This document shows, piece by piece, positions 8,814 to 28,456 of a stretch of 47,770 nt of DNA (positions are counted from its first letter, which is position 1; each line of letters opens with the position of its first letter). The position numbers and the translations under genes were made by a program. The stretch is taken from positions 1-47,770 of the IMG/VR virus record IMGVR_UViG_3300002461_000080. One strand, 5' to 3'. The notes under the pieces were generated by a model. The model made no database searches. It was not told the DNA's origin and saw only the letters and a program-made list of their open reading frames with translations. This stretch comes from a virus.

Positions 8814-9871
8814 GGCGGACCGTCATCCTCGCCCGGCTCCCTGGTCGCCGGCGCCGCCACCGGGACCATCGGCCCCGGCTTCGTGAGCTGCGAACAGGCT
8901 GCCTCGTAGAAGCGCCGTTCCATGTCGACCGTGTGCTCGACACCACAGACGATCCGCAGGTAGCCCTTGACCTCGTCGTCGGTCCGCTTCGCCTTTCGGG
9001 CGATCGTCCAAAACCGCTTCGCCTGCGGCTGCGAGATTTTCCGCGTGTCGGTCGCGTCGCGGCGCTCCTGAGCGGTCCGCCGGTCAGGCTCCCCGCCCTC
9101 CGTCCGAGGCTCCGATCGCTCGCCCTGCGCCGGCCTGGACCGATTCCCGGCCGTTCTAGGCTCCGCCACCCCCGTCTCGTCGTAGAACGGCGGGTCGACC
9201 TTCCGCCGCCACTGAGGTTTGGACCCCGACCGTCTCCAAACTTGGACACAGTGCTCGGCCTGCCACGCGGCGCCCCAGGACCGATCCCACAGCTCGAGCC
9301 CGATGCCGAGCCGCTTCGCCACCCGCCGGAGCGCGTTCGCGTTCAGCGCCTCGATCACGTCGCCGTAGGTCTGCTCGGCGTTGTCCGGATGGTATTCCTG
9401 CTCGGCCGTCGCCTGAGCGATCGGCTTGCCGTGAACGCACAACACGAACGTCTGCGTCGCGAGATGCTTGACCTCGCCGCCCTCCTGCGGGATCTCGACC
9501 ATCTTCGGCCGCGCCGCCGGCAGCATCGTCCACTGCCCACGCCCGAACGCGCGATTGAACCAGCGCGTGTATTCGATGTGCGAGTAGTAGACCGCGCCCG
9601 TCGGCTTCACGAGCACGCGGGCCGGATCGACCGGCTCCGCCAGGACCGCCTCCGCCTCCGCGCTCAGCGCGAGCGGCTGGAACCCGAGCTGCCCCAGGAT
9701 CGGGTTCTCGCTCAGCTCGACTGCCGCCGCCGGCGCGATCGCCGGCAGGACCTCGACCTTCGGCCGCACGGATGCGAGCCGCTGGACCTGCTTCGCGAGC
9801 TTGTCGAGCTTCGCGTTGTAGTCCGGACGACGCGCGAGCGCCGTCGTCGCCTTCTTCGCTTTCGGTGCCAT
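8807..9871 (-). CDS. Single-strand annealing protein, Rad52-superfamily-like.
   Basis: 354 aa from the ATG at 9871. It contains VYYSHIEYTRWFNRAFGRGQW and ALRRVAKRLGIGLELWD, which are Rad52/Sak-type motifs recalled from memory. It is paired with an exonuclease gene. Confidence 0.5.
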   Translation of the reverse strand: MAPKAKKATTALARRPDYNAKLDKLAKQVQRLASVRPKVEVLPAIAPAAAVELSENPILGQLGFQPLALSAEAEAVLAEPVDPARVLVKPTGAVYYSHIEYTRWFNRAFGRGQWTMLPAARPKMVEIPQEGGEVKHLATQTFVLCVHGKPIAQATAEQEYHPDNAEQTYGDVIEALNANALRRVAKRLGIGLELWDRSWGAAWQAEHCVQVWRRSGSKPQWRRKVDPPFYDETGVAEPRTAGNRSRPAQGERSEPRTEGGEPDRRTAQERRDATDTRKISQPQAKRFWTIARKAKRTDDEVKGYLRIVCGVEHTVDMERRFYEAACSQLTKPGPMVPVAAPATREPGEDDGPPW

Positions 9872-9906
9872 CGTTCCCCCCAACAAAGGGAACGGGCCGG
9901 CCGGCT

Positions 9907-13303: not shown

Positions 13304-14113
13304 TTAGAGGCCGACGTAGTAGCCGACGTTGATACGGTTCAGCACGGCAGCCCCCGCCGCCGGCATCGTGAATGTGGTGTTGGTGTTGGCGACGAGTGAC
13401 TTGAGCGGGTTCGCGAGCTGCATGTCGACGTCGATCTGCGTGCCGCCGGCAGCCATCGCATTGCCCACCGACCACACCGGACTCCCCGGCAGGTTCGCGG
13501 ACGTGTGGAGCAGGGTCGCCGTGCCCGCGAGCGCGGCCGTCGCGTTCCGCATCATGTTCAGATACGTGATGTAGTGGAACAGGCCGACGCCAGCGGCCGG
13601 CAGCGTCGCCGTTGCGCCCGTGTTGGCTGCGGCCGTCACCGTCACCCATAGGACGGTCGGCAGCGGCTTACTGTAGGCGATGATCCGCGCGCCGCTCGCC
13701 CTGAGCGCGACCGTGATGTTCCCCGACGTGAAGGCTGAGACGCGCACACGCACGCGCTTGTAACCGCTGCATCCGACGAAATAGCTGGCGGAGTGCGTCG
13801 TCGTGATCGTGACGCTGTTGACGAACTGCTCGCTCGCCGCTGTTGCTGCAACGAGACTGCCGACCGCCAGCGCCGGCAGCGGGAAGTAGTTGGTTCCGTC
13901 GACCGTTCCCTCGAACACGTAGGTCAGCGATCCGGCGCCAGTGCGAACGTCGATCGCGACTGTCGAGCAGCCGTCCACGTCCGCCAGGACCTCGGCGTTC
14001 GCCGCCGCGAGGAGGTTGGTGAACGTCCGGCTGTCCGTGTTGACTTCGCCGTTGACGCGATCGGGGAACAGGCCCCGGATCTCATTCCCTCGAGCATCGT
14101 AGAGTGTCGGCAT
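13304..14113 (-). CDS. Hypothetical tail or fibre-associated protein.
   Basis: 269 aa. The start overlaps the collagen-fibre stop (TGATG), and the composition is Thr/Ala/Val-rich and beta-type. Confidence 0.6.
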   Translation of the reverse strand: MPTLYDARGNEIRGLFPDRVNGEVNTDSRTFTNLLAAANAEVLADVDGCSTVAIDVRTGAGSLTYVFEGTVDGTNYFPLPALAVGSLVAATAASEQFVNSVTITTTHSASYFVGCSGYKRVRVRVSAFTSGNITVALRASGARIIAYSKPLPTVLWVTVTAAANTGATATLPAAGVGLFHYITYLNMMRNATAALAGTATLLHTSANLPGSPVWSVGNAMAAGGTQIDVDMQLANPLKSLVANTNTTFTMPAAGAAVLNRINVGYYVGL

Positions 14114-15096
14114 CAGAGCACCATGTAATCGAGCACGAGGTTCCCCCCGAGCGGCTGCTCGCCCTCGAGGAGCAACGTGAAGTTACCAGAACCCGGCACG
14201 GCCCGCATGCACAGGTCATCTTCCATCGGCGCGTCGACGTCCGTCTCTGCGACGCCCGCCAGCCACGGCAGCACCTTCGAGGCTCCCGTGACGCTGCCCG
14301 CCGTGACCACGACCGAATGCGACCGCTTCGCCGGCCAGCCGAGCGCCACGACGACGCGCGTCGCGGAGCCGCCACCGCCGCCCGCCGGTCCCTGCGGCCC
14401 GGTCGCGCCCGGCGGTCCCGGTGGCCCCGGCACGCCGACGCCGTCGCGGCCCGGCGGACCCTGGAGGCCCTGAGCGCCTGCCGGTCCCTGCGGGCCGGTG
14501 GCGCCCGGCGCCCCCTGCGCTCCCGGAGGTCCGGCTGGTCCGGCCATACCGGCGGCGCCTGGAGGCCCAGGAGCGCCCTGCGGCCCGGCTGGACCCTGCG
14601 GCCCGGTCGAGCCCGTGGCGCCAGGAGTGCCCGCGACGCCTGGAGGCCCCTGCGGACCCACCGGGCCGGCCGCTCCGACGGGTCCGGGCGCCCCAGGGTT
14701 CCCCGGTGGCCCCTGCGGGCCGGTCGCTCCTGCGGGTCCCTGTGAGCCCTGGACGCCCGGCGGACCCTGCGGCCCGGTGGCGCCCGGAGGCCCCATCATG
14801 CCCGGCGTGCCCGCCGGTCCCTGTGCGCCCGTCGCGCCGGCGGGTCCCTGAGCGCCGAACGCGCCCGGCGGTCCGCCCGGTCCCGGAGGCCCGGCGGGTC
14901 CCGGCGGTCCCGGAGGTCCGGGCGCTCCGCTGCCGCCGCCGCTCGAGCTGCTGCCGCCGAGGCCGATCGCCGGCGTGCCGTCCTGCCGTGCGAGCCCGAC
15001 GTTGATGCGATTCGAGACGCGCGTAACCTTCCCGCGCGCCGACGGGTCGACCGTCGTGCGATTGAGTCCGCGCTGCGCCTTCGAGAACTTCGGCAT
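14113..15096 (-). CDS. Collagen-like tail fibre protein.
   Basis: 327 aa. It has about 55 uninterrupted G-X-Y triplets, one interruption (GVGV), then about 6 more. Non-collagen N- and C-terminal domains flank the repeat. The gene occupies the gp17 position after the internal proteins. Confidence 0.75.
14377..14928 (-). repeat. Coding 9-bp-periodic G-X-Y (collagen) repeat tract.
   Basis: GGN-CCN-rich triplet periodicity is visible in the DNA and translates to [13 protein letters not shown]... Confidence 0.85.
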
Positions 15097-18000
15097 CTAC
15101 TTCGGCGCTCCGGAGATGAGTGCCATCGGGTTCGACGTCTTGCCCTCGACGAGCGCCGCGAACCCTTCGATCGTCCGCTTCACCTGTCCCGCAGGATAGT
15201 GGAACACGGCGCCGGCCGTGTCATTGAGTGACCGCCAGAACGCCGCGTCAGGCTCACCCTGTTCGACCTGCTGCACGAGCCGCGACGCGCTCGAGAACGC
15301 CCGCGCGCCGGCCGGTCCCTCGTAGCCGTAGCCGTTGCCGACGACGCCGGCGATCTCGCGCGTGATGACCATCGTGCCCAGGATGTAGGCAGCCTGCTCC
15401 CGCGCCAGCCGCACCGCGAGGTCCTCGTCGTCCTCGTCGCTGCCCGGCTTGATCGCCTCTCGCAGCGCCAGCCCCATCAGCGCCGGCACGGTGTAGAGCA
15501 GGAGGTAGTCGACCATCAGCCGGCCGATGTCCCCCGGCTTGCGGAAGTTGGTGCGCCGCGTCGACTCGGCCGCGAGGTTGTAGGTGACGTTGAAGAACGA
15601 ATAGAAATTCGTCCACAGCCGCAGGAGCGGCCCGCCGCGCTGGATGCCGGCGAGGTCCTTGACCTGCCCGCCGCCCTGCGAGTCGAGCACCGCCTGATCG
15701 GCCTGCGCGATCGCCGCCGCCTCGTCGACGCCACTCTCGAGCGCCTTCTCATACTGGCCGAGCCACGTCGGCAGGTCCGCGATGAGCTGCGCCTGCTGGA
15801 TGAGGAAGAAATAGCTATCCGCGACACCCTGCCGCGTCGCCTTGCCGCCGCTCACGCCCTTGAGCACGTCGTCGATCCAGCCGGAGAACGTGCCCGTGTT
15901 GACGCCGACGGCGTTGCGGATCTCGTTGATCTCGCGCTGCTGCGTCCGGCCGCGCTCGCGCATGAACGTCGACCGCTCCCGGACCCATGCCGCCGTGTTC
16001 TCCATCGTTGCCGCGTCGCGGAGCCAGCGCGCCATGCCGCGCGCTACCCACTTCGGCCCGATGCGGACCATCGACTGCGTGAGGCCGATCGGCTGGAGCA
16101 GCGCCGTCGTGATGTTCCAACCGAGCCCGGCGATCGTCGCGCCCTGCCGGAGATGGTTGATTGCGCGCTCGAACGCGCCGGTCGCCGGCACGTCCCCGAT
16201 CGCGATGTCGCGGACGCCGTTCTTGAGCTGCTTGTAGACGACGTCGCCGTGCGTCTCGTAGATCGCCGCCTGCACCGCCGGATGCCCCAGGACGCGGCCC
16301 ACGTCGATGAGCGTCTCGTGGTGGCTCAGGTCGTGGATGACCTGCCGAACGTGCTCGAACATCACACCGAAGTCCCGGCGGACCGGCAGCTTCACGCCGT
16401 CGACGCGCGCCTTCGTGTGCCCGCGCTTCGTCGTGCTCTGCGCGTAGGCAGCCGCTCGAGCCAGCCCCGCCTCCTCGACGTCGACGAACGCGCCGGCCTT
16501 CGCGCTCCGCCGCTCGTCATACTTGAGCGGGAAGTAGCCGCCAGCGAACTCCCCGAACGGCGTGCGGATCGTTGCCGCTTCGACCTTCTCCGGCGCGATG
16601 CCGTAGACGCGCTCCTGCTTCGCGGCGATGTCCGACCAATACCCGTTGATCATGTCGAGCACGCCCTGAACGAACTGCCAGTCGCTTTCCGACAGCGTCG
16701 CCAGGATGCCGGCGACCTGCTCGTCGGTCCACCGCTCGGAGCGCCGGATGCGGTCCCGGTTGCCCTCGTTGCCCCAATTCAGGGCGATGCCGATGCGCTC
16801 CATCTTCGATAGTGACCGGCCCACCGACGGCGCCAGCTCCTTCGTGTAAAGCGCCCGCTTGTCTCGAGCCGTCGGGAACGCCGCGTCGACGAGCGCCTGG
16901 AACTTCGCCGCCGCCTGCGCGTTCATCTCCGCCTCTCGAGCGCCGGCTTCGTTCAGCGGCCGGACGACCGCCTCCCACATGGCGCCGCCGTCCTCGAACC
17001 CGTCCATCTCGCGCACGAGGCTGGCGATCTTCCGGTGGCTGGCGATGAAATCCTGCACGCCGCGCATGCGCTCCGTCGACGGCCGGCGATCCATCTCACC
17101 GGCGCTCGCCGGCTTGCCCTTGAAGTTGGCGCGGATCGCCGTGGCGATCTCGTCGGCCGTGGCATCCAGCTCCCGCTGCGCCGCCGCCTTGAGTAGCCGG
17201 TTCTTGAGCCGCGCCAGATGCACCAGCGCCTTGAGGCCGTCCGTCACGCCGACGAGCTGCTCCACCGTGAGGTTCTGGTAGTTGGTTCGCAGCGCCTCGT
17301 TGAGCAGCTCCTCCGGCATGTCCGTCGGGAGCCCCTGCGACTCGAGCCCTTCGATGAACTTCACCAGCGACGCGCGGCGGTCGAGCGCCTGCTGGCTTAC
17401 CCGCGCGAACTCGAACCGATCGAGGATGCCGTCGATCTGGTCGAGATAGTTGTGCCCGGCGAGGCCGATGCTCGAGCGCGTCGTCGGCCGCGCCAGTCCC
17501 CGCGCGAACTTCACCCGCGCCTCGACGTCCTCGAGCACGCGCTGAGCTTCGCGGTAGAGCGCGAGGTTGAGCAGCTCCTTCCGCTTCGACTCGATCGCGC
17601 CGTCGTAGTCGGTGCGCGCGGCGCGCTCGAGCGCCTGCTGCGCGGCCCGGCGGCTGGCGTGCCAGAACACATCCGGCTTGACCTGCCGGATCTTCATGCT
17701 GGCGATCCGCGCCTTTGCCGCCGCGACGACGTCCTCGTGTCGCGGCAGCGCCGCGTTGATGACGCGCGCCCCGCCTCGAGCCTTGCGCCGCAGCTCCGAC
17801 AGCTCGGCCTGGAGCTGGTCGATCTCGAGCTGCTTGGCGCCCTCCGCGATCGCGACTCGCAGCTTCGTCTCCGCCTCGAGGAACCGGCGCTCGTAGTCCC
17901 GCTCCCGGCGCTCGGCTGCGAGCTGCCGGCCCGCCGCCTGCTCGAACGGCCGCACCGTGGCCCTCAGCTTCGCCAGGGCTCGCAGCTCGGCCCGGACGAT

Positions 18001-21000
18001 GACGTCCCGGTCCTCATTCGAGATAGCGGCCTGAGCGGCATTCTGGAGCGTCCCATCGAGCAACAGGCTCCCGTGCTCGGCCAGCATCCGCTGTTCGGTC
18101 CGCGCCCGGATGACCTCCCGCGCCGGCGCCGCCTCCGTAACCGCCTGGAGCAGCGCGTCGCCAGAGTCGTAGCCGAACATGCTGGCGACGAACTCCGGGT
18201 CGAGCCCGCCGTCGGCCGCGTAGATGTAGGGCCGTGGCAGCCGCTTGAGGTAGTCGAGCCCGTAGCGCGCGACGAGGATCGCCCGCGACAGCCGCAGCGG
18301 CTCCGTCTCGAGGCCCTCAACCATCGGGCTCCCGTCGGGCAGCGTCCCCCGCTGCATCGCCGCCAGCGCCCGGTAGACCGGCTCCGCGTAGACCTCCGCC
18401 GCGACCTCCGCCTCGATCTCGTTCCGCCGCGCCTTCCACTGCTTCGTCTGCTCGCGCTGAACCTCCGCCATCAGCCGGCGATCGAGCTGCTCGCGGGCCG
18501 TCCGGTTCGCCGCCTGGATGGTCCCCTCGTAGAGCGCGAACTCCTCCGGCGTCATGCCCGCCGACTCCGCCGTCGTGAACATCGGCGGCGCGTTGCGGAG
18601 GTCGTTGGCCTGTGCGATCGCCACGTCGCCGGCGACCATGCGGTCGACCACCGCCCGCACTTCCGGCGTGAACTGCACGCCGAGCCGGCTGAGCGAACGG
18701 TAGACGCCGAGAATCCACGCGCGGAACCTCGAGAACGCGCTCTGCAACCGGAGCGACGGCGCCTTGCCTTCGCCCAGGTATGCCTCGAACGCCGCCGCAA
18801 ACTTCTCGTGCTGGTCGACGCCGATGCCGGCGCGGCTGTCAACCTCGAACCACTCGAGCAGCGTCGCGTAGTCCGCGATGAGCGCCTGCTGCTGCGCGGT
18901 CCGAGTCGCCGGGTCGCTCGCCTTTACCTTGTCGACGAGGTCGCCCATCAGCTCGAGGAACAGGTGCCCCGACTCGTGGAGGAACGTCGTCAGGTCCGCA
19001 CGCTCGAACAGGCTGATGCTGACCTGCCGGCCAGGACCGAACCGGATCGCCCCGCGACGGCCGCGCTCCTCGGTCTGGTAGAGGATGCGCGGGTCGTTCG
19101 GGTCGAACGTGCCCACGTTGCCGACGGCGCTCTTGACCTGCTCCGGCTTGAACACGATGTAGTGAACCGTGTCCGCGTCCATGCCGGCCATCGGCGTGCC
19201 CATCTTCTTCTGGCTGCCGAACTTCGTGTCGACCGTCGTGTCGACGATGCCGTCGTAGCCGAGCCGCTCGATCGTCCGGCGGATGATCTCGCCGCGAATC
19301 AGGTTCCCCTGGTCGTCGGTCGCGTAGCCGAGCTGCTCGCTCGTGAGCAGGATCTCGATCGCCCCTCGGAGCGGGATGCCGTCGTAGTCGCGCGCCCGTT
19401 CCATGATGCGGTCGACGACGTCGCCCAGGTCGGAGAACTCGACGTCGTTCGCGAGGTCGACCTCCGCCTGGAGCGCCTCGAGGAACTCGAGCACGCCGCC
19501 GCCCTCGGTCGGGTCGTAGCCCTCGCGGTCGCTCAGCTCTTGGACGATCTGCTCGTCGTCCATGCCCTCCGCCCGCAGCTCCTCGACGTCGGCCGGCTCG
19601 AACGACGTGATCGGCTCGTCGTAGACGCGCGTGTAGTCGAGCAGTGACTCGTTGCGCCCGCCGAGCCGCGCCGGCCGCTCCATCTTGAGGTAGACGGGCA
19701 TCGTCATCCCGCCATGCTTCACGCCGAGCCGGTCGAGCGCCAGCAACCGCACCGCCGCGAACCGATCGTCTGGCGCCAGCGTCCGGTCCTGCCGCGTGAG
19801 GTCCTGCTTCGCCCGCGCGATCTCCTCCGGCCGCTCCGCGACGATCGCGTCGAGCTGCTCGATGATGTCCTCGTCGTCCATCTCGAGCGCGCTCTCGATG
19901 CGCTCCACTTCGCGCGACAGCTTGCTTGCGAGGTCCGGCCCCGCCTCGGTGGCGTAGTTGGCGCCGACGTCGCGCGGGTTGTTCGAGAAGTAGATGCCGG
20001 CGCCCAGGTCCGACTCGACGTTCGCCCGCGTGGGATCGAACGTGTCGAAGTCGCCCGTCGTGCCGTGGTAGACCACCAGCGGCTCGCCGTCCTCGTCGAC
20101 GATCTGGCTTTCCCCGAACCACTTCCGGAGGTTCTGCTCGCGCGCCGTCGAGCCGTGCGCTTCGTTCGACTGCTCGGTGACGGCCTGCACGAAATCGCGG
20201 CGCTCCTTGCCCGTGACCGGCTTGCCGTTCTTGTGCGTGAGCTGAACGATCGAGTCGTCGAACACGACCATGTTGCGGAGCTTCTTCCGCTTGCCCTGGT
20301 CGCGGCTGTTGGCGTCCTCGTATTTCAGCCCCGGCACGCCGGCAGCCAGGAGCTTGAGGCTCGCCAGCCGCGCCGCATCCTCCGCCGCGCGCTCCTCGAG
20401 CACTGCGAGCTGCACGAACTCGTCGTAGTCGGCGCCGAACTGCGCCCGCACCCGCTCCTCGCTCGAGCCGGATGCGATGCCGCCGCCCGTCGGCTGCGCC
20501 GGATGCTTCGCCCGCAGCTCCTCCGCGCGCTCGCGGAGCGGCTTGCGGATGCGCTCCTCCTCGTCGGCCTGGATGATGCGATAGGCCATCTCGCCGTTCG
20601 CCGGCTGCGACATGCTGCCGCGCTCGAGCGTGTAAGCCTTGAACGCGCTCTTGAGCTGACGCGGCCCGTTGTCCTTCGGCCCCAGGTAGCCGCGCCGCTT
20701 GAGGCCCTCCCGCACGAGGTCCTGCACCGGCTTCGGCTGCTTGTCGATCGGCGCGTCCCAATCGAGCATCTTCGCGACCTGCGCGTCGTCGATCTCGATC
20801 TGGTAGACCCCGCCCTTCACCGGGTCCCATCGCACGGACGCGGCGCCCGGCTTCGCCAGCTCGTCGCGGAGCCGCTTCGTCGCCTCGATGCCCTCGGTCC
20901 ACTCCTCGATCGCGAGGTCCTTCGCGTGTTGATCGAGCCACTCGAGCACGTAAGCCTGGAACCCGTCCTCGCCGCGCCCGAGCAGCTCGAGCGGATTCGC

Positions 21001-24000
21001 CAGGAGGTTCTCCGCCAGCGACGCGCGGACGTTCTCGATGTCGCTCTCCGATGCCCGGCGCGAGTAGTCGAACCCGTTCTTGTCATTCAGTCGCATGCTG
21101 CCGAGACGCATCTCGACCATCTGCGGCTCACCGCTCAGGGTGTCGAAGTAGTGCCCGGCGATCGCCGGGTCCTCCGCGAAGTAGAGGCCCCAACCGTAGG
21201 CAGCCGCGCCCTCGCCCGTGCCGATGTGCTCGACCGAGAAGCGATCGAAGTCGTGCGGGCTCCCGTGATAGAGCGGCTGGTCGAACTCGCGCACGCCGGC
21301 GCGGAACGCCCGGAGCTGCTCGCGCGACGGCCCGACACTGCGCGGCTGGCTCGGCCCGTCCGCGTAGACGGTCGGCTCGCGATACATGCCCTCGCGCGTC
21401 GTGAAGTCCTTCGCCCGGCCCCGGTTGTCGACGAACCCGAACCGCCGATAGAAGGTCCGCAGCCGCGACGCGCTCGAGGTCCGCTCCGTGTTCGGCGTAT
21501 ACGGCCAGCCCTTTTCCGCCGGCGACAGCTCGAGCCGGATGCCGCTGCGATCCGCCCACCGCGTCAGCTCGCGCATGACCTTCGAGCCGAGCCCCTGCCG
21601 AGCGGCGCCGCGACGGATGAGGATCGTCTCGAGCTTCACGACGTTCTCGCGGAGCGGGTCCACCCGCAGCTCGAATGACACCAGCTCGTCGCCGGCGGCG
21701 CGCTTCACCGTGTCCGCGAATGCGTCGGCCGTCTGCTGCGGGTCGGCCGTCTCCTCCGCCGGCAGACTTTCGCGGTCGATGACCACCAGCGCCGGGAACC
21801 GCTTCGCGCCGAGCAGCTTGAGCGCGTCGAACCGATGCGCGCCCTCGAGGATGTAAGGCCCCTGCTTGTCGACGACCACGATGAGCGGGTTCAGGACGTT
21901 GTTCTCGCGGATCGCCTCCGCCAGAGCCCGCGTGCGCTGCTCCTCACTCGTCGAGTAGAACGACGGCGCGTTCTCGCTGAACAGCGACATCGGCACGTCG
22001 CGGATGCCGGCCAGGACCTCGTAGTCCTCGAGCGACGCGGCGATCGACGACGTGTTCGGGACCTCCGCCTGGACGACGCGGCCGTCGACGACGTCATCCG
22101 CGACCGGATACTCTGCATCGAACGCCGTCGGCGCCGGCGTCACGTCCGGCTGGTTGTAGATGACCGCGTCGTCGCGATCGAACGCGCCGCTGTTGTTGTT
22201 CGCGTGCTTGACCTGCGTCGGTCGGAACGCGATGTATTGAACCTCGCCGTCCTCCGCGTCGCGGAACACAGCGCCGTCGTAGCCCATCGCCTCGTAGCGC
22301 GCGATGTCCTTCGGTCCCCACCCGATCCAGTCGTCGAAGTTGTCGATCTCGACCGGGTTCTCGATGCGCGCGTAGAGCGGCAGCACGATCACGCCGTCGT
22401 AGGGGTCCGGCACGTCCTGTGCCTTCGTCGCCTTCGGCGCCCGCTCCGCCCCGAACTCGAGCGCGACGTCGCTCAGGTTGGTGAGGTAGATCGGCAGCGT
22501 CGGGTCGAACGCATCGAACTCCACCGCCGTCCCGTGGAACAGCGTCATCGGGTTCCCGGCGCCGTCGACGACGACACTGTTGCCGAACCACCGGCGGAAC
22601 GCCGGCGAGTCGATCGGGTTCCACGGCTGGAACAGCGTCGTCTGGAAACCCTTGCGCTGCTCGACCTCGCTCGTGAGCCGGAACTCGTCCTCGACGTCCG
22701 ACATCTTCGGCGTCGGCCGCTCCTCCTCGCGCACGTCGCCCACGTCGCCAGGGAGTCGCGGCTGCGCCTCGCCGGTGTCGAGAAGGTCCGCCTTCGTCGT
22801 GAGCTGCTCGGCCGCGCCGGGCTCCTCGAGCTGGTCGAACAACGACTGCGCGAAGTCCGCCACGTTGAACGACGTGTCGACCGGGCCGTCGGGCTCGAGG
22901 ATGTCCCGCTCCATGTCGTCGACGTCGAGCAGGTCGACAGCCTGCCGGTCGACGTCGTTCCACCAGTCGCGCGAGAAGTCGATGCCGAGCCCCTTGAGGT
23001 CGCTCGCATCGGGAACCGCGCCGAGCCCTTCCGGGATGCCGTTCAGCCGGACGTCGTCGAGAAACGCGACGAGGTCCTCGATGTCCTGCAACCACGGCCA
23101 GCGGCCTTCCGCCTGGAGGTCTTGCAGCATGACGTCGAGCCCGAGCCCGCCGCGCTGCTCCTGCCGGATCTCCCACTTACCATCGATCTTCTTCCGGACG
23201 TTGACGAGCTTGCGCGGCTTGACGACGAGCACGCCCGGCACGCCGCCGACCTTCCCGAAGATCGTGCCCTCGCGGAGCCGCGCCATCTCGCCGGCCTGCC
23301 CGCGTTCGCTCTCGTAGATGCCGCCCTTCGCGGCGATCGCCTTGAGCAGTTGGACCGGGCTCTCCTCGTTCTGGATGCCCTTGATGTCGTCGAAGATGTC
23401 GAGCCGGTAGTCGAACTCGGCGCGGAACTTCCGCTCGTCGAGCGCCGGGTCTAGTGAACGCGCCGCGTCGAGCGCGTCCGCGTAGAGGCCGAGCCGCTCC
23501 GCGTTCGCATACGGTTCCAGCGGCCCGGCGGCGAGAACGTCTCCGTCTGCTCCGCCTCCTTCGCCGCGCGGCGGAGCGCCAGCTTCGCCGGCATCCCTGC
23601 CAGCACGCGCCGCCTGAGCTTCTCGAGATCCACCGGCATCGGTCCCCCCATCCTCCCGCGCGGGAAGGTTTCTGTCAACAACACGCCCGCCGTTGTCGGT
23701 CAGGACGCGGAACCCGTCCGGGCCGGCAATGCCGAACGTCTGACCCTTGCGCGGCTGGTAGTCGACCGCGTCGGCGCCGATGACCGGCGTGAACCGCCCG
23801 GCCCGGTCGAAGTAGCCGAACGCCTCGCCGCGCGCCTTCATGCCCTCGAGCCGGGACATCGCCTCGAAGGACGCGCCCGACTCGCCGCTGGCGTTGACCT
23901 CGAGCCCCGGTCCCTGGTCCCCTTCGCCCAGGACCGGCTCGATCGTCGCGCCGGCGGATGCCGCCTCGAGCGCCGCCATGCCGGGAACCTCGTCCCCGAA

Positions 24001-26028
24001 CGCCGGCGCCGCTTCACCCTCAGCCGGTGCGAGCGGGAGCGCCCGAGACTCCGCCGTTGAGGTCGCCCCGCTCCCAGCTCCTACGGGGCCGGCAGCCGCC
24101 TCCGCCGGCGTCCCGCTCGCAGCCCGAGCCTTCGGACGCTCGAGCGCCGGACGGTCGATCGACAGCCCCAGGTCGGCCAGCATCGAGCGCGGGTCCACGC
24201 CGGCGCGCTCGGCCAGGGAACCGAACGTCGACTCGTAGAGGTCCGCGTAGCTCTCCGCCGTGCTGCGCTCGACGCCTGCGCCCTCGAGCTGCGTCAGGAT
24301 GTCGCCCCGGACCTGCTGCGCCGGCGTGAGCGCCGCGTCGACCGTGGCCTGCTCCTGCGCCGCCGCCTCCGCCTCGAGCTGCGCCTTGAACTCGCGCGCT
24401 TCTCGAGCGTTCATCTCGCCCGGCGCCAGCCGCAGCTCCTCAGCGAAGAACCGATTGTGTTCGGTCGCCGCCAGCGTCACGGCGTAGCGCGCCGTCGGAA
24501 TCGCGAGGTCCTCGCCGGTCGCAAGCGCCCGCTCGAGCGCCTCACTCGAGCCGATGACGTCCCGCGCGATCTCGGCCGGGTCGACGCCCTGCGACTGCCA
24601 ATACTGGACCCACGCCTCCGCCGGCGCGTAGATGGTCCCGATCGGGCCGTCCTTCGTCGCGCGCTCGAGGAACGCCTGCGCCGCCTCCGGCGCTCGCTTG
24701 ATGGTTGCGGACGCGGACGCTTGCCCGCCGAGCGCCTTGAAGAACTGCGCCGTCGCCTCGCCCTGCTGGATCTGCCGCTGCGCTCGAGCGGCGCCCATCG
24801 CCGGGCCGGCGCCCGACAGGAGCCCGAACCCCTCGATCGCGCCGATGCCCTCGTTGACGAGGTCCTCCGCGATGTCGCCGCCGGTGCGCGTCGGAATCGA
24901 CTGGTCGGATGCGGCCTTCGCCAGCTCGCCGGCCATGATGGTGATGCCGCGCTGCGCGACCTCGGTCGCCGTCTCGACGGTGAGCGTCGTCCCGTAGGAG
25001 CGGACCGCCTCCGCCAGCGCCGCGCGCACGGTCGGCTGCCGGAGCGCCCGCTTCACTGCCGCTCGAGCGCCGACCGACGTCAGCTTGTCGAGCCCCGGAA
25101 TCGTCTTGGCGATCGCCTCGAACCCGACCGCCTCGAACCCTGCCGCCATCGCGCCGGCCGACAGCGCCGCCACCCGCGCGATCGCCGGGTCGAGCGTCTG
25201 CCCCGTCTCGTCCTTGAACGCCAGGAACTCGTCGAGCGCCAGCCCCGACTCGATTACAAAACCGAACTTCGCCGCCCCGTAGAGCGCGCCGGCCCTCGCG
25301 CCATACGGCGCTGCCGCCAAAGCGCCCGGAATCGCCCCCACGCCGCCCGCCACAGCGCCCACGCCGGCGCCCACGGCTCCCGTAGTGGCGGCGCCGGCGA
25401 CGCCGTAGGCGCCCGCGTAGAGGCTCGCGCCGAACAGGTTCGGGAGCTGCTGCGCGCCGCCGGTGACGGCCTTCTTGAACCAGCTCGAGCCGGTCCCCAG
25501 GGCTCCGCCGTCGACCATGTGGAACCGATACGCCTCGAGCTGGTCCTGCTCGGCCCTGGTCAGCTCCCGGAACAGGCTCTCGTGGCGGAGCTGCGCGAAC
25601 CGGACCTGATTGATGCCCTGCGAGAACGCCCGGCCCGGCGCCGACACCAGCCACTCGAGCGCGCCGAGCTGCTCCATGTCGTCGGCCGCGACCTGCGCGT
25701 TCATTGGGTCGCTTGCCCACTCGGCCAGGGCCGGCGTCTCCGCGAACATCGCCTCGTATGGCGTGCGGCCGTTGTCCGCCTCGAGCTTCACCCGATCGAA
25801 GTTGGCTTCGACGAGACGGGCCGGCAGCCCCGTCTCCTTCGACAGCTTCATCGCTTCGGCCGCGCGCTCCGGCGCCACCTTGTCGCGCTCGAGCATCGCC
25901 GCCCGGAGCCGCTGCTCGCGGCCGTCGTGGAGCCGCGAGACGGCTGCCTCGAACGGGTCCTGCTGCGGCCCCTGCGCCTGCTCGTCGTCGAGCGCGCCGA
26001 GCGCGTCGTCGTAGATGTTGCCGGCCAT
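15097..26028 (-). CDS. Giant polyvalent internal virion / ejection protein in the gp16 position, 3643 aa.
   Basis: A single uninterrupted ORF of 10,932 nt. Motifs seen are FRRWFGNSVVVDGAGNPMTLFHGT, LRKWFGESQIVDEDGEPLVVYHGT and LYHGSPHDFDRF..GWGLYFA (ART-like); PYILEGAHRFDALKLLG (ParB/Srx-like); RQGLGSKVMREL..FYRRFGF (GNAT-like); and FLHESGHLFLE (HExxH). Confidence 0.85.
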   Translation of the reverse strand: MAGNIYDDALGALDDEQAQGPQQDPFEAAVSRLHDGREQRLRAAMLERDKVAPERAAEAMKLSKETGLPARLVEANFDRVKLEADNGRTPYEAMFAETPALAEWASDPMNAQVAADDMEQLGALEWLVSAPGRAFSQGINQVRFAQLRHESLFRELTRAEQDQLEAYRFHMVDGGALGTGSSWFKKAVTGGAQQLPNLFGASLYAGAYGVAGAATTGAVGAGVGAVAGGVGAIPGALAAAPYGARAGALYGAAKFGFVIESGLALDEFLAFKDETGQTLDPAIARVAALSAGAMAAGFEAVGFEAIAKTIPGLDKLTSVGARAAVKRALRQPTVRAALAEAVRSYGTTLTVETATEVAQRGITIMAGELAKAASDQSIPTRTGGDIAEDLVNEGIGAIEGFGLLSGAGPAMGAARAQRQIQQGEATAQFFKALGGQASASATIKRAPEAAQAFLERATKDGPIGTIYAPAEAWVQYWQSQGVDPAEIARDVIGSSEALERALATGEDLAIPTARYAVTLAATEHNRFFAEELRLAPGEMNAREAREFKAQLEAEAAAQEQATVDAALTPAQQVRGDILTQLEGAGVERSTAESYADLYESTFGSLAERAGVDPRSMLADLGLSIDRPALERPKARAASGTPAEAAAGPVGAGSGATSTAESRALPLAPAEGEAAPAFGDEVPGMAALEAASAGATIEPVLGEGDQGPGLEVNASGESGASFEAMSRLEGMKARGEAFGYFDRAGRFTPVIGADAVDYQPRKGQTFGIAGPDGFRVLTDNGGRVVDRNLPAREDGGTDAGGSREAQAARAGRDAGEAGAPPRGEGGGADGDVLAAGPLEPYANAERLGLYADALDAARSLDPALDERKFRAEFDYRLDIFDDIKGIQNEESPVQLLKAIAAKGGIYESERGQAGEMARLREGTIFGKVGGVPGVLVVKPRKLVNVRKKIDGKWEIRQEQRGGLGLDVMLQDLQAEGRWPWLQDIEDLVAFLDDVRLNGIPEGLGAVPDASDLKGLGIDFSRDWWNDVDRQAVDLLDVDDMERDILEPDGPVDTSFNVADFAQSLFDQLEEPGAAEQLTTKADLLDTGEAQPRLPGDVGDVREEERPTPKMSDVEDEFRLTSEVEQRKGFQTTLFQPWNPIDSPAFRRWFGNSVVVDGAGNPMTLFHGTAVEFDAFDPTLPIYLTNLSDVALEFGAERAPKATKAQDVPDPYDGVIVLPLYARIENPVEIDNFDDWIGWGPKDIARYEAMGYDGAVFRDAEDGEVQYIAFRPTQVKHANNNSGAFDRDDAVIYNQPDVTPAPTAFDAEYPVADDVVDGRVVQAEVPNTSSIAASLEDYEVLAGIRDVPMSLFSENAPSFYSTSEEQRTRALAEAIRENNVLNPLIVVVDKQGPYILEGAHRFDALKLLGAKRFPALVVIDRESLPAEETADPQQTADAFADTVKRAAGDELVSFELRVDPLRENVVKLETILIRRGAARQGLGSKVMRELTRWADRSGIRLELSPAEKGWPYTPNTERTSSASRLRTFYRRFGFVDNRGRAKDFTTREGMYREPTVYADGPSQPRSVGPSREQLRAFRAGVREFDQPLYHGSPHDFDRFSVEHIGTGEGAAAYGWGLYFAEDPAIAGHYFDTLSGEPQMVEMRLGSMRLNDKNGFDYSRRASESDIENVRASLAENLLANPLELLGRGEDGFQAYVLEWLDQHAKDLAIEEWTEGIEATKRLRDELAKPGAASVRWDPVKGGVYQIEIDDAQVAKMLDWDAPIDKQPKPVQDLVREGLKRRGYLGPKDNGPRQLKSAFKAYTLERGSMSQPANGEMAYRIIQADEEERIRKPLRERAEELRAKHPAQPTGGGIASGSSEERVRAQFGADYDEFVQLAVLEERAAEDAARLASLKLLAAGVPGLKYEDANSRDQGKRKKLRNMVVFDDSIVQLTHKNGKPVTGKERRDFVQAVTEQSNEAHGSTAREQNLRKWFGESQIVDEDGEPLVVYHGTTGDFDTFDPTRANVESDLGAGIYFSNNPRDVGANYATEAGPDLASKLSREVERIESALEMDDEDIIEQLDAIVAERPEEIARAKQDLTRQDRTLAPDDRFAAVRLLALDRLGVKHGGMTMPVYLKMERPARLGGRNESLLDYTRVYDEPITSFEPADVEELRAEGMDDEQIVQELSDREGYDPTEGGGVLEFLEALQAEVDLANDVEFSDLGDVVDRIMERARDYDGIPLRGAIEILLTSEQLGYATDDQGNLIRGEIIRRTIERLGYDGIVDTTVDTKFGSQKKMGTPMAGMDADTVHYIVFKPEQVKSAVGNVGTFDPNDPRILYQTEERGRRGAIRFGPGRQVSISLFERADLTTFLHESGHLFLELMGDLVDKVKASDPATRTAQQQALIADYATLLEWFEVDSRAGIGVDQHEKFAAAFEAYLGEGKAPSLRLQSAFSRFRAWILGVYRSLSRLGVQFTPEVRAVVDRMVAGDVAIAQANDLRNAPPMFTTAESAGMTPEEFALYEGTIQAANRTAREQLDRRLMAEVQREQTKQWKARRNEIEAEVAAEVYAEPVYRALAAMQRGTLPDGSPMVEGLETEPLRLSRAILVARYGLDYLKRLPRPYIYAADGGLDPEFVASMFGYDSGDALLQAVTEAAPAREVIRARTEQRMLAEHGSLLLDGTLQNAAQAAISNEDRDVIVRAELRALAKLRATVRPFEQAAGRQLAAERRERDYERRFLEAETKLRVAIAEGAKQLEIDQLQAELSELRRKARGGARVINAALPRHEDVVAAAKARIASMKIRQVKPDVFWHASRRAAQQALERAARTDYDGAIESKRKELLNLALYREAQRVLEDVEARVKFARGLARPTTRSSIGLAGHNYLDQIDGILDRFEFARVSQQALDRRASLVKFIEGLESQGLPTDMPEELLNEALRTNYQNLTVEQLVGVTDGLKALVHLARLKNRLLKAAAQRELDATADEIATAIRANFKGKPASAGEMDRRPSTERMRGVQDFIASHRKIASLVREMDGFEDGGAMWEAVVRPLNEAGAREAEMNAQAAAKFQALVDAAFPTARDKRALYTKELAPSVGRSLSKMERIGIALNWGNEGNRDRIRRSERWTDEQVAGILATLSESDWQFVQGVLDMINGYWSDIAAKQERVYGIAPEKVEAATIRTPFGEFAGGYFPLKYDERRSAKAGAFVDVEEAGLARAAAYAQSTTKRGHTKARVDGVKLPVRRDFGVMFEHVRQVIHDLSHHETLIDVGRVLGHPAVQAAIYETHGDVVYKQLKNGVRDIAIGDVPATGAFERAINHLRQGATIAGLGWNITTALLQPIGLTQSMVRIGPKWVARGMARWLRDAATMENTAAWVRERSTFMRERGRTQQREINEIRNAVGVNTGTFSGWIDDVLKGVSGGKATRQGVADSYFFLIQQAQLIADLPTWLGQYEKALESGVDEAAAIAQADQAVLDSQGGGQVKDLAGIQRGGPLLRLWTNFYSFFNVTYNLAAESTRRTNFRKPGDIGRLMVDYLLLYTVPALMGLALREAIKPGSDEDDEDLAVRLAREQAAYILGTMVITREIAGVVGNGYGYEGPAGARAFSSASRLVQQVEQGEPDAAFWRSLNDTAGAVFHYPAGQVKRTIEGFAALVEGKTSNPMALISGAPK
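23649..23682 (-). promoter_or_regulatory. Intragenic copy of the GTTGTTGACAGAAACC motif, followed by the perfect palindrome TCCCGCGCGGGA.
   Basis: The 12-mer is at 23667..23678 in minus orientation and encodes VVDRNL of the giant protein. The 12-bp palindrome is at 23654..23665. Confidence 0.4.
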
Positions 26029-26037
26029 GAGCCCCCG

Positions 26038-27828
26038 CTACTGACGGAACCGCGCTTCGATGAACGTCTCGAGCACCGTGGCGTCGTTGACTGGAATCCG
26101 TCGCGACCTGAGAAGCTGCTCGATGCGCGTGCGGTCCGTCGACGGCACGTCCTCGATCGTCAGCTCGAACGGCCGCGCCTGCCGCTCCGTGTCGAAGAAC
26201 GGCGCCGACGAGAACAGCCCGCCCCAGGTCCCTTCGCGCCGCACCGTGATCTGCGACGACAGGATGCCGTCGAGCATCTCACGAACCTCGTCGTTCGTCG
26301 CCGTCTTGCCCGTCTCGCCGCCGCTCAGCGCCCGCACGCGCCGGTCGAGCATGCCCCGGAGCTGCGCGACCGCCTTCGCCTCCGGCGTGCCCTCCTTCGG
26401 GTTCGGGTCGAGCCCGTAAGCGACGAGCCGGTCGTTGAATACCTGCGTCTTGGACTGGAACTCGTCGACGATGAGCTTCGTCCGTGACTTCTCGGCGTCG
26501 GCCGCTGCGCCGATCGCGTGCTCGCGGAGCGACCGCTGGAGGTTCGCCATCTGCTGAAAGTCCGACTCGCTCAGCTTGCCCTTGTAGCGGAGCAGGTTCT
26601 CGGTCAGGAATCCCTTGTTGGTCGACACCGCCCGGTTCATCAGCGCGTAGTAAGTCTCGAGGTCCGTTTCGACCGGCTCACCCTTCGCGATGTTCCGCGC
26701 GTAGCTGCGGATGCCGGCGAGGTCCTTCGAGTCGAGCGACGCCCACACCGCCGGGTCGATCGCGTTGACGTCGCCGCCGCTCTGCTCGACGACGGCGTAG
26801 ACGCCCCGGAGCGTCGTCTCCTGCCGCTCGCGCTCCTCACGCTCGCGCACCAGCGCCTCGTGCTCGAGCCGCTGCGTCACGCTGTCCCGGACGTCCGGGT
26901 CCTCGATCGCCTTCGCCTTGTTGCGCTGCTCGGTGAGCGTCCCACCCTCCGCGACGATCTTGTCGACGAGCGTCTGCGACTGCTTGCGGATGGTCCCCTC
27001 GCGGAGCGCCTTCTCGACGCGCGTGATCGATTCGCCGTTGATCTGCTCTTTCGCCTCCTCGAAGTAGGCCCGCGCCGCGCCCGGCTGCCCCTGCGAGATG
27101 AGCGACTCGATGACGCCGATATGGCCCTTCGTGCGGACGGCGTCGACCTGCGCCTCGATCTGCTCCGGCCCGAGGCCGAGACGCGGCCCGCTCCGCTGCA
27201 CGGCGTCGACGGCCTTCGCCAGCTCGAACCCCGCGCGTCGCGGGTCGGTGGCATTCGCCGCCATGTCGCTCAGGCTGTTGTCGACGAACGCTTTCAGCTC
27301 GCCCGCCTCATACGCCTGCATCTCGCCCAGGACGTGACGGCGGAGCGTCAGGTCGATCTGCGCTGAGCGGTTGCCCTTCACCCGCTGGAACGCGCGCCGC
27401 TGCCGCTCGGTCCCGAGCCCGCTCTCGATCTCGCCGGCGACCTTCTCGAACTCGCCGGCGACCGACTCCGGCAGCCCGAACGAGTCGCGGCCCTTCGCCG
27501 CCAGCGCGCCGCCCTGCGGGTCGTAGAGCCGCTTGCGCTCCCACGCGCTGAGCTTGTTGTCGGCGTCCATCAGCGCGACCTCGTCGGCCCGCTGCTGCTC
27601 CGCCATCGCGATCTGCCCCAGGACGGCGCCGGCTCGAGCGACGGTGTCCCCGAACCCGGCGATCGCGTTGCCCGTGACCTGCGCGTTCCGGCCGCGCGTG
27701 AGCGCCAGCCCCGCCTCCGCCTCGAACACGCCGGCGCCACGGCTCGCGGCCGTCTCTGCGGCCGTCCGGCGGACGCCAGGGAGCGCCGTCGGTGCGACCT
27801 GCCTCGTGAGCGTAGGAACTCTCGGCAT
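26038..27828 (-). CDS. Internal virion / ejection protein in the gp15 position.
   Basis: 596 aa and largely helical. It lies between the gp14-position and gp16-position genes. The call rests on synteny only. Confidence 0.5.
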   Translation of the reverse strand: MPRVPTLTRQVAPTALPGVRRTAAETAASRGAGVFEAEAGLALTRGRNAQVTGNAIAGFGDTVARAGAVLGQIAMAEQQRADEVALMDADNKLSAWERKRLYDPQGGALAAKGRDSFGLPESVAGEFEKVAGEIESGLGTERQRRAFQRVKGNRSAQIDLTLRRHVLGEMQAYEAGELKAFVDNSLSDMAANATDPRRAGFELAKAVDAVQRSGPRLGLGPEQIEAQVDAVRTKGHIGVIESLISQGQPGAARAYFEEAKEQINGESITRVEKALREGTIRKQSQTLVDKIVAEGGTLTEQRNKAKAIEDPDVRDSVTQRLEHEALVREREERERQETTLRGVYAVVEQSGGDVNAIDPAVWASLDSKDLAGIRSYARNIAKGEPVETDLETYYALMNRAVSTNKGFLTENLLRYKGKLSESDFQQMANLQRSLREHAIGAAADAEKSRTKLIVDEFQSKTQVFNDRLVAYGLDPNPKEGTPEAKAVAQLRGMLDRRVRALSGGETGKTATNDEVREMLDGILSSQITVRREGTWGGLFSSAPFFDTERQARPFELTIEDVPSTDRTRIEQLLRSRRIPVNDATVLETFIEARFRQ

Positions 27829-27832: not shown

Positions 27833-28456
27833 CTACCTGTTCCGGAATCCGTAGGACATCTGGAGCAGCGACGTCGTGCCGCCGATCAACGTGCCCGCCA
27901 TGCCGAAGTAGTTGGCAGTCGCCGCCGCGCGTCCCGACTCGCGCGTGCCCTGAGCCCCGAGCCGCGCCGCCGCCTCCGCGTTGAGCCCTTCCTTCCGCAT
28001 GATCTCGCCGCGCTTGCGGTAGTCCTCCGCCTGCACCTTGTAGCCCCACGCCTCGCGGCCGGCGTTCGTGCGGATCTGGAGCGCGTCCATCTCGCCCAGG
28101 AACGCGGCGTCGGCTTGGACGTCGACGGCGCTGCCGTAGCTGACGTCGATGTTGCCGCCCGCGAACCCGGCGCGCTGCTCTCCGATCGTCTTGCGGACCT
28201 GCGTGCGGAACCGGCTCTCTGCCTCCGCGCCGCGATCGACGGCGTCGGTCGATTGCAGCTCCGCAACCTGCGCGTTGTAGTCCGCCAGCTCCGCCTGTGA
28301 TTCGGATGCTTCACGCGCGGCCGTGCCCGCCTTCTCCTGAGCAGCCGCCGCCAAGTTGCCAGCCTTCTTCTGCTGCTTGGCGGCGCGATACTGCCCGTAG
28401 GCCGTGACAGCCGTGCCGAGCGCCGAGATGCCGAGTGCCCACCCTGCCAGACCCAT
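27833..28456 (-). CDS. Internal virion / ejection protein in the gp14 position, with an N-terminal membrane anchor.
   Basis: 207 aa. The N-terminus is MGLAGWALGISALGTAVTAYGQY, followed by an Ala/Gln/Glu-rich helical region. It directly follows the nozzle gene, as in T7. Confidence 0.5.
   Translation of the reverse strand: MGLAGWALGISALGTAVTAYGQYRAAKQQKKAGNLAAAAQEKAGTAAREASESQAELADYNAQVAELQSTDAVDRGAEAESRFRTQVRKTIGEQRAGFAGGNIDVSYGSAVDVQADAAFLGEMDALQIRTNAGREAWGYKVQAEDYRKRGEIMRKEGLNAEAAARLGAQGTRESGRAAATANYFGMAGTLIGGTTSLLQMSYGFRNR

Follow-up and report, generated by a model that had tools for sequence, protein, structure and literature searches.

Three ART-PolyVal modules, one of them divergent, in the giant putative ejection protein of a BPP-1-like phage

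Background

Polyvalent proteins of phages are predicted to be packaged and injected (Iyer et al. 2017, PMC5512222), and a single such protein may contain one or multiple copies of an ADP-ribosyltransferase (ART) domain, 12 copies being present in one prophage protein (PMC5512222). The domain, ART-PolyVal, also named 'N4-ART' or Tox-ART-HYD2-related clade (Iyer et al. 2017, PMC5512222), has an active site composed of a His in strand 1, a Tyr in strand 2 and an Asp in strand 5 (H-Y-D); a GNAT family typically neighbours the ART in polyvalent proteins, and a zincin-like metallopeptidase, a likely processing enzyme, is their commonest domain (PMC5512222). Here we report the analysis of IMG/VR virus record IMGVR_UViG_3300002461_000080 (positions 1 to 47,770; this whole stretch of 47,770 nucleotides is hereafter the window), in which a giant open reading frame (ORF) of 3,643 aa carries three ART-PolyVal modules, termed A, B and C.

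Modules A and C resemble the described family in matching its profile, in their H-Y-D configuration and in being found, in more than one copy and with an adjoining GNAT domain, in a phage polyvalent protein. Two features depart from it: the subfamily of module B has Pro in the place of the Asp, with Y-x-D-x-x-S-R and LDWD as invariants, and both B and C are longer by about 200-240 residues, mostly helical, which are inserted at two loop positions common to them. A phmmer search with module A retrieved 9,175 representative clusters at E <= 1e-3; the proteins among the top matches reach 7,334 aa in length and contain as many as 21-22 matched stretches apiece. Since many-copy proteins appear both in this search and in the published survey (PMC5512222), three ART copies in one polypeptide are ordinary; multi-ART polyvalent proteins were already catalogued in 2017 and are abundant in the databases, and the current picture of them is unchanged.

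The closest described relatives of the whole protein are Bbp10 of Bordetella phage BPP-1 and gp039 of Caulobacter phage Jess A, with which it shares the place in the structural cassette, the LPD22 domain, a block at aa 437-624, an HExxH motif and a C-terminal body of about 1,300 aa, although those proteins are 2,039-2,052 aa long, against 3,643 aa here. A literature search for 'Bbp10' returned nothing relevant. In its gene order, with a small gp14-like protein, a middle protein and a very large protein just upstream of the tail fibre gene, the locus also recalls gp14-gp15-gp16 of phage T7, but the transglycosylase-like domain is here on the middle protein and not on the large one. T7 gp16 is not known to bear effector enzymes like these modules. 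In both systems the large protein has hydrophobic regions close to its two ends, and in T7 gp16 the cytoplasmic part is bracketed by two membrane regions (PMC8954989). Phage T4 Alt, an ART that is packaged in the head and injected, and that acts at the very start of infection, is the functional model of Iyer et al. (PMC5512222) for these domains; unlike the modules described here, it belongs to the R-S-E clade (Alt/VIP2) and is encoded as a protein by itself instead of forming part of a giant ejection protein (PMC5512222).

ART-PolyVal modules A and C

The giant ORF was scanned piecewise with the Pfam model of ART-PolyVal (PF18760, cut-off 31.2 bits), and the following features were located:

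15097-26028, minus strand: giant ORF, 3,643 aa (ORF list and translation)
22177-22599, minus strand: ART-PolyVal module A, compact form, aa 1144-1284 (PF18760 51.8 bits, E 2e-13, profile positions 1-140 of 140)
20221-21276, minus strand: ART-PolyVal module B, divergent 'HGSPH' subfamily, aa 1585-1936 (PF18760 29.5 bits, E 1.4e-6)
19099-20130, minus strand: ART-PolyVal module C, with two helical insertions, aa 1967-2310 (PF18760 82.8 bits, E 5e-23, in two stretches)

A preliminary description of this DNA had proposed three ART-like modules in one polypeptide. The peptides that it quoted proved to be exact and to lie in the single ORF 15097-26028 (minus strand), and the regions that it delimited correspond to aa 1125-1300 (A), 1575-1935 (B) and 1960-2318 (C). 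Its assignment of A and C to ART-PolyVal was borne out by the Pfam scan, in which both scored above the cut-off, whereas B fell just below it. At the level of sequence the family membership of A and C is solid. Pairwise BLASTP of A against C, an alignment that the same description had suggested, gave E values of 2e-11 and 4e-6 with about 32% identity, which agrees with its view that the modules have diverged; A against B gave no significant match, and the N-terminal halves of B and C matched with E 8e-4.

The successive distances between the landmark residues (His, Tyr, Tyr, Asp/Pro and Lys) were 16, 38, 32 and 23 in A, 25, 100, 146 and 40 in C, and 28, 126, 157 and 34 in B. From these differences it follows that C is about 200 aa longer than A, mainly in two blocks, one of about 62 aa between strands 2 and 3 and another of about 114 aa between strands 3 and 5. 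Hence, the single insertion of about 150 aa first attributed to C has to be replaced by about 200 extra residues, most of them in two helical blocks. Module B is extended at these two sites as well, by about 88 and 125 aa, and in the AlphaFold2 models both sets of insertions are mostly helical.

The key residues are H1165, Y1181, Y1219, D1251, K1274 and N1279 in A, and H1988, Y2013, Y2113, D2259, K2299 and N2304 in C. In a canonical alignment of 33 sequences, A and C included, the His, the Asp of G-[YH]-D-G, the Lys of QIKS and the next Asn were each present in 33/33, the Tyr of the PVY strand (strand 3) in 31/33, and the strand-2 position was occupied by Tyr in 21 and by Phe in 8 (29/33). Every family-invariant residue, that is the His, the two Tyr, the Asp, the Lys and the Asn, is therefore kept in A and C. 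The catalytic triad had been given beforehand as H-Y-E, but the published triad of the family is H-Y-D (PMC5512222). This triad is complete in A and C, whereas in B the third position is not conserved, being Pro in 39 of 46 family members and never acidic, an outcome that the preliminary description had itself named as speaking against its reading.

The AlphaFold2 model of module C (pLDDT 87.0, pTM 0.82) assigned H29, Y54 and Y154 (model numbering) to strands 1, 2 and 3, respectively, with D300 directly before a later strand, a predicted arrangement such as an ART should have. At least 92% of C, with the insertions, is covered by stand-alone homologues (P0121-P0125), and every match listed in the search with C carries PF18760. 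When the model was compared with predicted viral structures (BFVD), 57 matches were obtained at E <= 1e-3; many of the named ones, the top two among them, are called ART-PolyVal-like or 'PolyVal ADP-ribosyltransferase', and several lie within large multi-domain proteins.

At the DNA level, the only element present in three copies in A, B and C is a 28-nt stretch, about 75% alike, that codes for the YHG(T/S)..FD motif, and no repeat is longer than 37 nt. Since no more than this motif is shared in the DNA, the ART copies are not recent duplications. Recent tandem duplication of the modules was thus rejected, in view also of the about 32% identity between A and C and of the closer relatives that B and C have elsewhere.

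A C-like ART-PolyVal with insertions was also seen in a 1,479-aa protein of Myxococcus phage Mx1 (L004, 605-5044), annotated 'NUDIX hydrolase', in the order GNAT, ART-PolyVal (aa 649-896) and NUDIX. Tunturiibacter phage Tunturi_5 has a similar match under a NUDIX annotation. By context, the architecture of the Mx1 protein ties ART-PolyVal to ADP-ribose or nucleotide chemistry.

Module B, a divergent subfamily

The Pfam match of module B covers profile positions 9-66 only, that is, the N-terminal half. A database search with B retrieved 188 proteins, and PF18760 is precomputed on nearly all of the 120 listed; many of these homologues stand alone, with lengths of 330-450 aa and a coverage of about 90% of B. 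Two family alignments, one of B (A1, 46 sequences) and one of compact ART-PolyVal (A3, 18 sequences), were then compared by hhalign. Their N-terminal halves aligned with a probability of 95% (E 2e-8), and the C-terminal strands of B, aGIpGIrYlD...NyVvFDd, aligned with GyDGii...YiaFxPeQIK of the compact family with E 4.4e-5; for the middle region of B (strand 3 and LDWD) hhalign gave no alignment to the compact profile. The predicted order of strands is the same in the models of B (pLDDT 85.2, pTM 0.75) and C. The presence of PF18760 on the homologues and the alignment of both halves by hhalign indicate that B is a third ART-PolyVal domain, belonging to a divergent subfamily of this family and not to a separate one. 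The first description, in which B was another HGSPH-type domain, is revised accordingly. Against the C-type family, hhalign aligned only the N-terminal 47 columns of the B family, and no homology is detectable between the helical insertions of B and those of C.

B retains H1588, Y1616 and Y1742, the His being placed in the first predicted strand of the B model as it is in that of C, and the position of the catalytic Asp is occupied by P1899. In the family of 46 sequences the His and the strand-2 Tyr are each found in 46/46, both Tyr being invariant, and the Asp column holds Pro in 39, Lys in 5, Met in 1 and Leu in 1, never Asp or Glu. Conservation is stronger in the B type than in the canonical domain, and the B type has invariant residues of its own (D1758, Y1903, D1905, S1908 and R1909). 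The invariant or near-invariant motifs of the subfamily are HGSPHDFD, the glycine-rich GTGEGAQAYGHGLYFAE, LDWD, Y-x-D-x-x-S-R just after the Pro, and N-x-V-x-F-D.

The giant ORF as an orthologue of Bbp10

The regions of the giant protein outside the cargo domains were as follows:

25621-25905, minus strand: LPD22, the N-terminal hallmark of the family, aa 42-136 (Pfam PF18834 68.5 bits, E 6e-19)
25297-25437, minus strand: Gly/Ala-rich uncharged hydrophobic stretch, aa 198-244, candidate membrane-insertion region I (Kyte-Doolittle; 47-residue charge-free run)
18679-19056, minus strand: predicted zincin-like metallopeptidase region, aa ~2325-2450 (motif conservation)
15100-19113, minus strand: conserved C-terminal ejection-protein body, aa 2306-3643 (PHROG 9880, 1,244 bits)

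BLASTP aligned the giant protein with Bbp10 in three segments (aa 4-134 with 3-135, aa 437-624 with 406-595, and aa 2306-3637 with 747-2044) and with Jess A gp039 in two (aa 437-624 with 377-575, and aa 2256-3643 with 753-2036). The block at aa 437-624 is thus common to the three proteins, and the C-terminal body is 37-42% identical to both relatives over up to about 1,390 aa; taken over the last ~1,330-1,390 aa, the identity is 37-38%. LPD22 scored above the Pfam cut-off in Bbp10, Jess A gp039 and phages AF, CP2 and Carin1, and in Mel-JY33 it reached 26.9 bits, slightly below the cut-off of 28.6. When the C-terminal 900 aa were used in tblastn, 49 phage records matched, the best being Caulobacter phages Jess A, SR18, RapA and BL94 (42%) and Bordetella phages of the BPP-1 group (39%), followed by lower matches in Xanthomonas, Pseudomonas, Vibrio, Cobetia, Octadecabacter, Microcystis and Nostoc phages. 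The HExxH motif and the whole C-terminal body were established for Bbp10 and Jess A gp039; in AF, CP2, Carin1 and Mel-JY33 the comparison covers the C-terminal ~900 aa. A megablast search of 50,697 phage records with the giant gene gave no match, and its relatives are found at the protein level only.

The gene order leads to the same assignment. In the window the portal, capsid, tail tubular A, tail tubular B, gp14-like, transglycosylase, giant and tail fibre genes follow one another, and this order agrees with that of BPP-1: bbp13 (tail protein), bbp12 (internal virion protein), bbp11 (transglycosylase), bbp10 and bbp9 (tail fibre). The 2,052-aa bbp10 product is annotated within the structural cassette of BPP-1. 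With the genes of the gp14-like protein and the transglycosylase-like protein ahead of it and that of the tail fibre behind it, the giant ORF stands in the position that corresponds to T7 gp16. By alignment and synteny, the giant ORF is an orthologue of BPP-1 Bbp10 and a member of the polyvalent protein class: LPD22, three ART-PolyVal domains, ParB_N, GNAT and the HExxH region lie within a single ORF of 3,643 aa, and it has late/virion genes as neighbours on both sides, which is consistent with packaging.

An assembly or ORF artefact was considered and rejected, since the coding bias is uniform (third-position G+C, GC3 = 0.92), homologous domains occur along the full length and orthologues of 2,039-4,012 aa are present in isolated phages.

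A hydropathy scan revealed a second hydrophobic segment at aa 3504-3522 (nt 15463-15519), so that the cargo domains are flanked by two hydrophobic stretches, aa 198-244 and aa 3504-3522. The HESGH motif is at aa 2351-2355 (nt 18964-18978) and the Glu of the downstream FEAYL at aa 2415; HExxH and HE.FA..FEAYL.EGKAP were kept in 4/4 of the proteins compared (window, Bbp10, Jess A and the metagenomic contig L001 described below). With these motifs, the region fits the zincin-like metallopeptidase described in PMC5512222. A Pfam scan of aa 141-1120 gave nothing except one weak match to DUF6861.

Between the conserved N-terminal block and the cargo domains, aa ~625-847 (nt 23490-24150) are a long stretch of low complexity in which Ala, Gly, Glu and Arg abound and no family matched, probably a disordered linker.

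Contents of the cargo slot

The order of domains in the slot is: an unknown-function domain, ART-PolyVal A, ParB-like, GNAT, ART-PolyVal B and ART-PolyVal C, so that both the ParB-like and the GNAT domain lie between modules A and B. In addition to the three ART modules, it contains:

22615-23487, minus strand: unknown-function domain at the start of the slot, aa 848-1138 (37% identical to L001; no Pfam family found)
21784-21993, minus strand: ParB N-terminal-like domain, aa 1346-1415, ILEGAHRFDA (Pfam PF02195 26.3 bits, equal to the cut-off)
21430-21657, minus strand: GNAT acetyltransferase, aa 1458-1533, RQGLGSKVM (Acetyltransf_1 24.3 bits, cut-off 20.7; Acetyltransf_7 25.4 bits)

The ParB-like domain was also matched by PHROG ParB-like families (E 3e-6 and 5e-6). 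As deduced from the boundaries of the BLASTP alignments with Bbp10 and Jess A gp039, the slot measures about 1,650 aa here, with at least six domains, and about 150-180 aa, with one domain, in these two orthologues, an expansion of about 1,500 residues. The contents recognised by Pfam differ among the orthologues:

L003, 3476-9634: BPP-1 bbp10, 2,052 aa; slot with PBECR1
L002, 8449-14568: Caulobacter phage Jess A gp039, 2,039 aa; slot with one ART-PolyVal
L005, 1053-7694: Pseudomonas phage AF, 2,213 aa; slot with LPD23
L009, 101-8665: Cobetia phage Carin1, 2,854 aa; slot with PBECR5
L006, 192-7628: Xanthomonas phage CP2, 2,478 aa; no domain recognised in the slot
L010, 101-12139: Microcystis phage Mel-JY33, 4,012 aa; no domain recognised in the slot

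In the 44.5-kb contig L001 (ENA contig_150321), the closest metagenomic relative, a GNAT domain and a B-type ART, paired in P0010, stand directly before the conserved body, and neither A nor C is present. Judged by these domain contents, the central slot behaves like an exchangeable cargo bay.

The equivalent gene of L001 (5418-15653) is called as three ORFs of 1,379, 292 and 1,584 aa, and its tblastn matches shift from frame 3 to 2 and back to 3; these shifts may be either assembly or frameshift errors or the sign of a truly split gene.

A second and similar element, RGAIRFGPGRQVSISLF, follows the tail that ends the ART-PolyVal domain, 'GN.GTFDP.DP.I' (window 19000-19120, giant aa ~2303-2345). 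In Bbp10 (L003, aa ~775-796) the equivalent 'RGTFDPATLTVSLL' comes after PBECR1 and not after an ART. The RGAIRFGPGRQVSISLF/RGTFDPATLTVSLL element may belong to a junction before the HExxH module and not to the ART domain, and it might serve as a processing site.

Comparison with solved structures and the cyanophage A4 pre-ejectosome

Sequence searches of the PDB with the profile of the B family, the profile of the compact family and module C alone gave nothing significant. Below the threshold, the best matches of the compact profile were nine sequences of the exotoxin A catalytic domain (E 0.6-0.8) and the PARP-like domain of ZAP. In the exotoxin alignment YHGT, GFY and the third Tyr of the profile are in register with 'YHGT', 'GFYI' and 'RVY' of exotoxin A, which we take to be the motifs of H440, Y470 and Y481. 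Foldseek aligned the model of module C with tankyrases and diphtheria toxin over about 60 columns, also below the threshold (E 2-7). A direct resemblance to ADP-ribosyltransferases of solved structure is no more than suggested; local structural alignment is probably thwarted by the long helical insertions.

In the PDB, the C model matched best with chain 9k3a_B of the cyanophage A4 pre-ejectosome (E 0.024, probability 0.98, 347 columns). The candidate region in this phage is:

20116-25269, minus strand: gp27 of Anabaena phage A-4L (L011, KF356198), 1,717 aa, with a candidate ART-PolyVal-like module at aa ~1420-1610

Near its C-terminus gp27 has the motif sets LYHGT...GSGTYFSKS and GVDAL...TLVINPDAVSVI, with LVINPDAVSVI after GVDAL. 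The ART-PolyVal profile singled out this segment alone among the four A4 pre-ejectosome proteins, and hhalign placed its His, Tyr and Asp in register (probability 45%, E 2e-4). A Pfam scan of gp26 and gp27 of A4 gave nothing relevant and no ART-PolyVal, and ADP-ribosylation is not mentioned in the paper on the A4 structure. gp27 seems to contain an unrecognised ART-PolyVal-like module, and chain 9k3a_B may be this protein. If true, an experimental structure would already show an ART-PolyVal-like module inside a capsid.

Other genes of the window

The window has a G+C content of 69% and all its credible genes are on the minus strand. By PHROG and Pfam scans, its layout is that of a short-tailed phage. 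The genes are given in transcription order, which on the minus strand means descending coordinates:

46057-47199, minus strand: DNA methyltransferase (PHROG/Pfam)
41447-43114, minus strand: large terminase (PHROG/Pfam)
37694-39586, minus strand: portal (PHROG/Pfam)
36587-37321, minus strand: protease/scaffold (PHROG/Pfam)
35558-36559, minus strand: major capsid protein (PHROG/Pfam)
30699-34289, minus strand: 1,196-aa protein with a tail tubular A domain at its end
28461-30698, minus strand: tail tubular B (PHROG/Pfam)
27833-28456, minus strand: gp14-like internal virion protein, 207 aa (PHROG 418 'internal virion protein', E 3.6e-26; weak Pfam T7_gp14)
26038-27828, minus strand: transglycosylase-like internal virion protein, 596 aa (PHROG 10475 and 1044 'endolysin', E 4e-61 and 1e-23)
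14113-15096, minus strand: collagen-repeat tail fibre, 327 aa (PHROG tail-fibre families; Pfam Collagen E 1e-23)
8807-9886, minus strand: Mgm101-like single-strand annealing protein (recombinase; Pfam E 3.5e-27)

The 596-aa transglycosylase-like protein (26038-27828) occupies the position of BPP-1 Bbp11, and the tail fibre gene (14113-15096) is directly downstream of the giant ORF. At the low-coordinate end, also on the minus strand, the Mgm101-like recombinase, which has a counterpart in L001, is accompanied by an exonuclease, a small-terminase-like protein and replication genes that include two helicases. In the 30699-34289 protein the match to tail tubular protein A (PHROG 394) is confined to the last ~250 aa; its first ~940 aa gave a weak Laminin_G_3/ConA-like match at aa 207-294 and nothing else, and this N-terminal extension is unusually long for an adaptor protein.

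Discussion

On the strength of the domain identities, the residue conservation, the orthology and the synteny, we give a probability of roughly 0.75 to the giant ORF being the large ejection (internal virion) protein of a BPP-1-like (Rauchvirus-related) phage, with modules A and C acting as NAD+-using ADP-ribosyltransferases delivered early; in this reading packaging, ejection, topology, NAD+ use and targets are what we infer. The giant protein would be made late and packed in the capsid core together with the gp14-like and transglycosylase-like proteins, and on infection it would be ejected through the tail, the stretch between the two hydrophobic regions reaching the host cytoplasm by analogy with T7 gp16. 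There, A and C would ADP-ribosylate host macromolecules with NAD+ in the first minutes of infection, for take-over or counter-defence; NAD+ transfer is proposed for these two modules because of their family membership and their intact H-Y-D site. A prior release of the two by the HExxH peptidase is conceivable but speculative, and the GNAT and ParB-like domains would act on other targets. B, which keeps the His and Tyr residues of the NAD pocket, could be a catalytically rewired relative or a module that binds NAD+ or ADP-ribose. The proposal in the preliminary description that the modules are NAD-utilising effectors with diverged specificity would remain reasonable.

Several observations weigh against this reading. 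No published assay or experimental study was found in the literature searched for 'ART-PolyVal' or PF18760, and NAD+ use would follow from superfamily membership alone. All matches to solved ADP-ribosyltransferase structures were sub-threshold, and Foldseek with the B model against the PDB gave no significant match and no ART. At two near-invariant columns module A has another residue: Leu instead of Phe after the strand-2 Tyr, and His instead of Ser in QIKS. B lacks the predicted catalytic Asp, and it also differs from the rest of its subfamily in two columns with a conservation of at least 93%, one of them in YGHGLYF: Gln is replaced by Ala (93% column) and His by Trp (96%) in the motif GAQAYGHGLYF, at giant aa 1609 and 1613 (window 21160-21200). 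Both substitutions, which adjoin the strand-2 Tyr, are shared with the closest relative, P0010, and are lineage-specific. No peptidase profile or Pfam model matched the HExxH region. The grounds for placing the protein in the virion and its cargo in the cytoplasm are synteny and analogy, and similarity in sequence to T7 gp16 did not turn up, no search dedicated to it having been made.

The Pro of the B subfamily admits two interpretations: either B uses another acidic residue, for which the conserved D1758 and D1905 are candidates, or it only binds NAD+ or ADP-ribose. A tentative extension, to which we give rather low odds, is that the B-type domain ('HGSPHDF...GTGEGAQAYGHGLYFAE') is ART-derived with a relocated or new active site, or is a sensor of NAD+ or ADP-ribose, and, separately, that ART-PolyVal-like modules are ordered parts of podophage pre-ejectosomes, as the match to cyanophage A4 suggests; a single domain would then be both a packed structural element and an injected enzyme.

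Hydrolysis and transfer are indistinguishable from sequence, NADase versions exist in the ART superfamily (PMC9503650), and the NUDIX fusion of phage Mx1 suits nucleotide turnover as well as transfer. The modules could hence be NAD+ glycohydrolases, or could deplete or shield NAD+, acting on the NAD+ pool of the host or on NAD+-derived defence signals instead of modifying macromolecules. We regard this as unlikely, since the family has been grouped with the transferase clades of the H-Y-[D/E] type (PMC5512222) and, as a matter of argument only, the few copies delivered by a virion seem fitter for specific targets than for draining a millimolar pool.

Quite unlikely, too, is a mainly structural role, in which the fold would have been reused in the pre-ejectosome of the capsid core and catalysis would be lost or irrelevant, at least for B. 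The match of the C model to 9k3a_B, which B also matches weakly, the ART-PolyVal-like motif set near the C-terminus of A4 gp27 and the missing Asp of B would suit such a role. However, A and C keep every invariant polar residue, which is unexpected for a purely structural block, and ART-PolyVal also exists as stand-alone proteins of about 200-450 aa. Furthermore, ejection-protein orthologues such as those of BPP-1, phage AF and CP2 are devoid of any ART, and for this reason the modules must be dispensable for the structure of the core. Finally, that B represents a separate, non-ART domain family of large polyvalent proteins, as might be thought from its Pfam score just below the cut-off over profile positions 9-66 only, the non-significant BLASTP between A and B and the lack of a significant PDB match for its model, is highly improbable, given the PF18760 assignments of nearly all its listed homologues, the hhalign matches to compact ART-PolyVal in the N-terminal half (E 2e-8) and in the GxxG and VVF strands (E 4.4e-5), and the predicted order of strands, which is that of C.

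Under the preferred reading, in which the giant ORF encodes an ejection protein with A and C as early-delivered transferases, this locus would be a clean and large example of a phage ejection protein serving as delivery vehicle for several enzymes. In the Bbp10 family the same slot is filled by differing effectors, be it an RNase-like PBECR, one ART, or three ARTs together with GNAT and ParB-like domains. This makes the family convenient for asking what the early targets of virion-delivered ARTs may be and what role the Asp-less module B may have.

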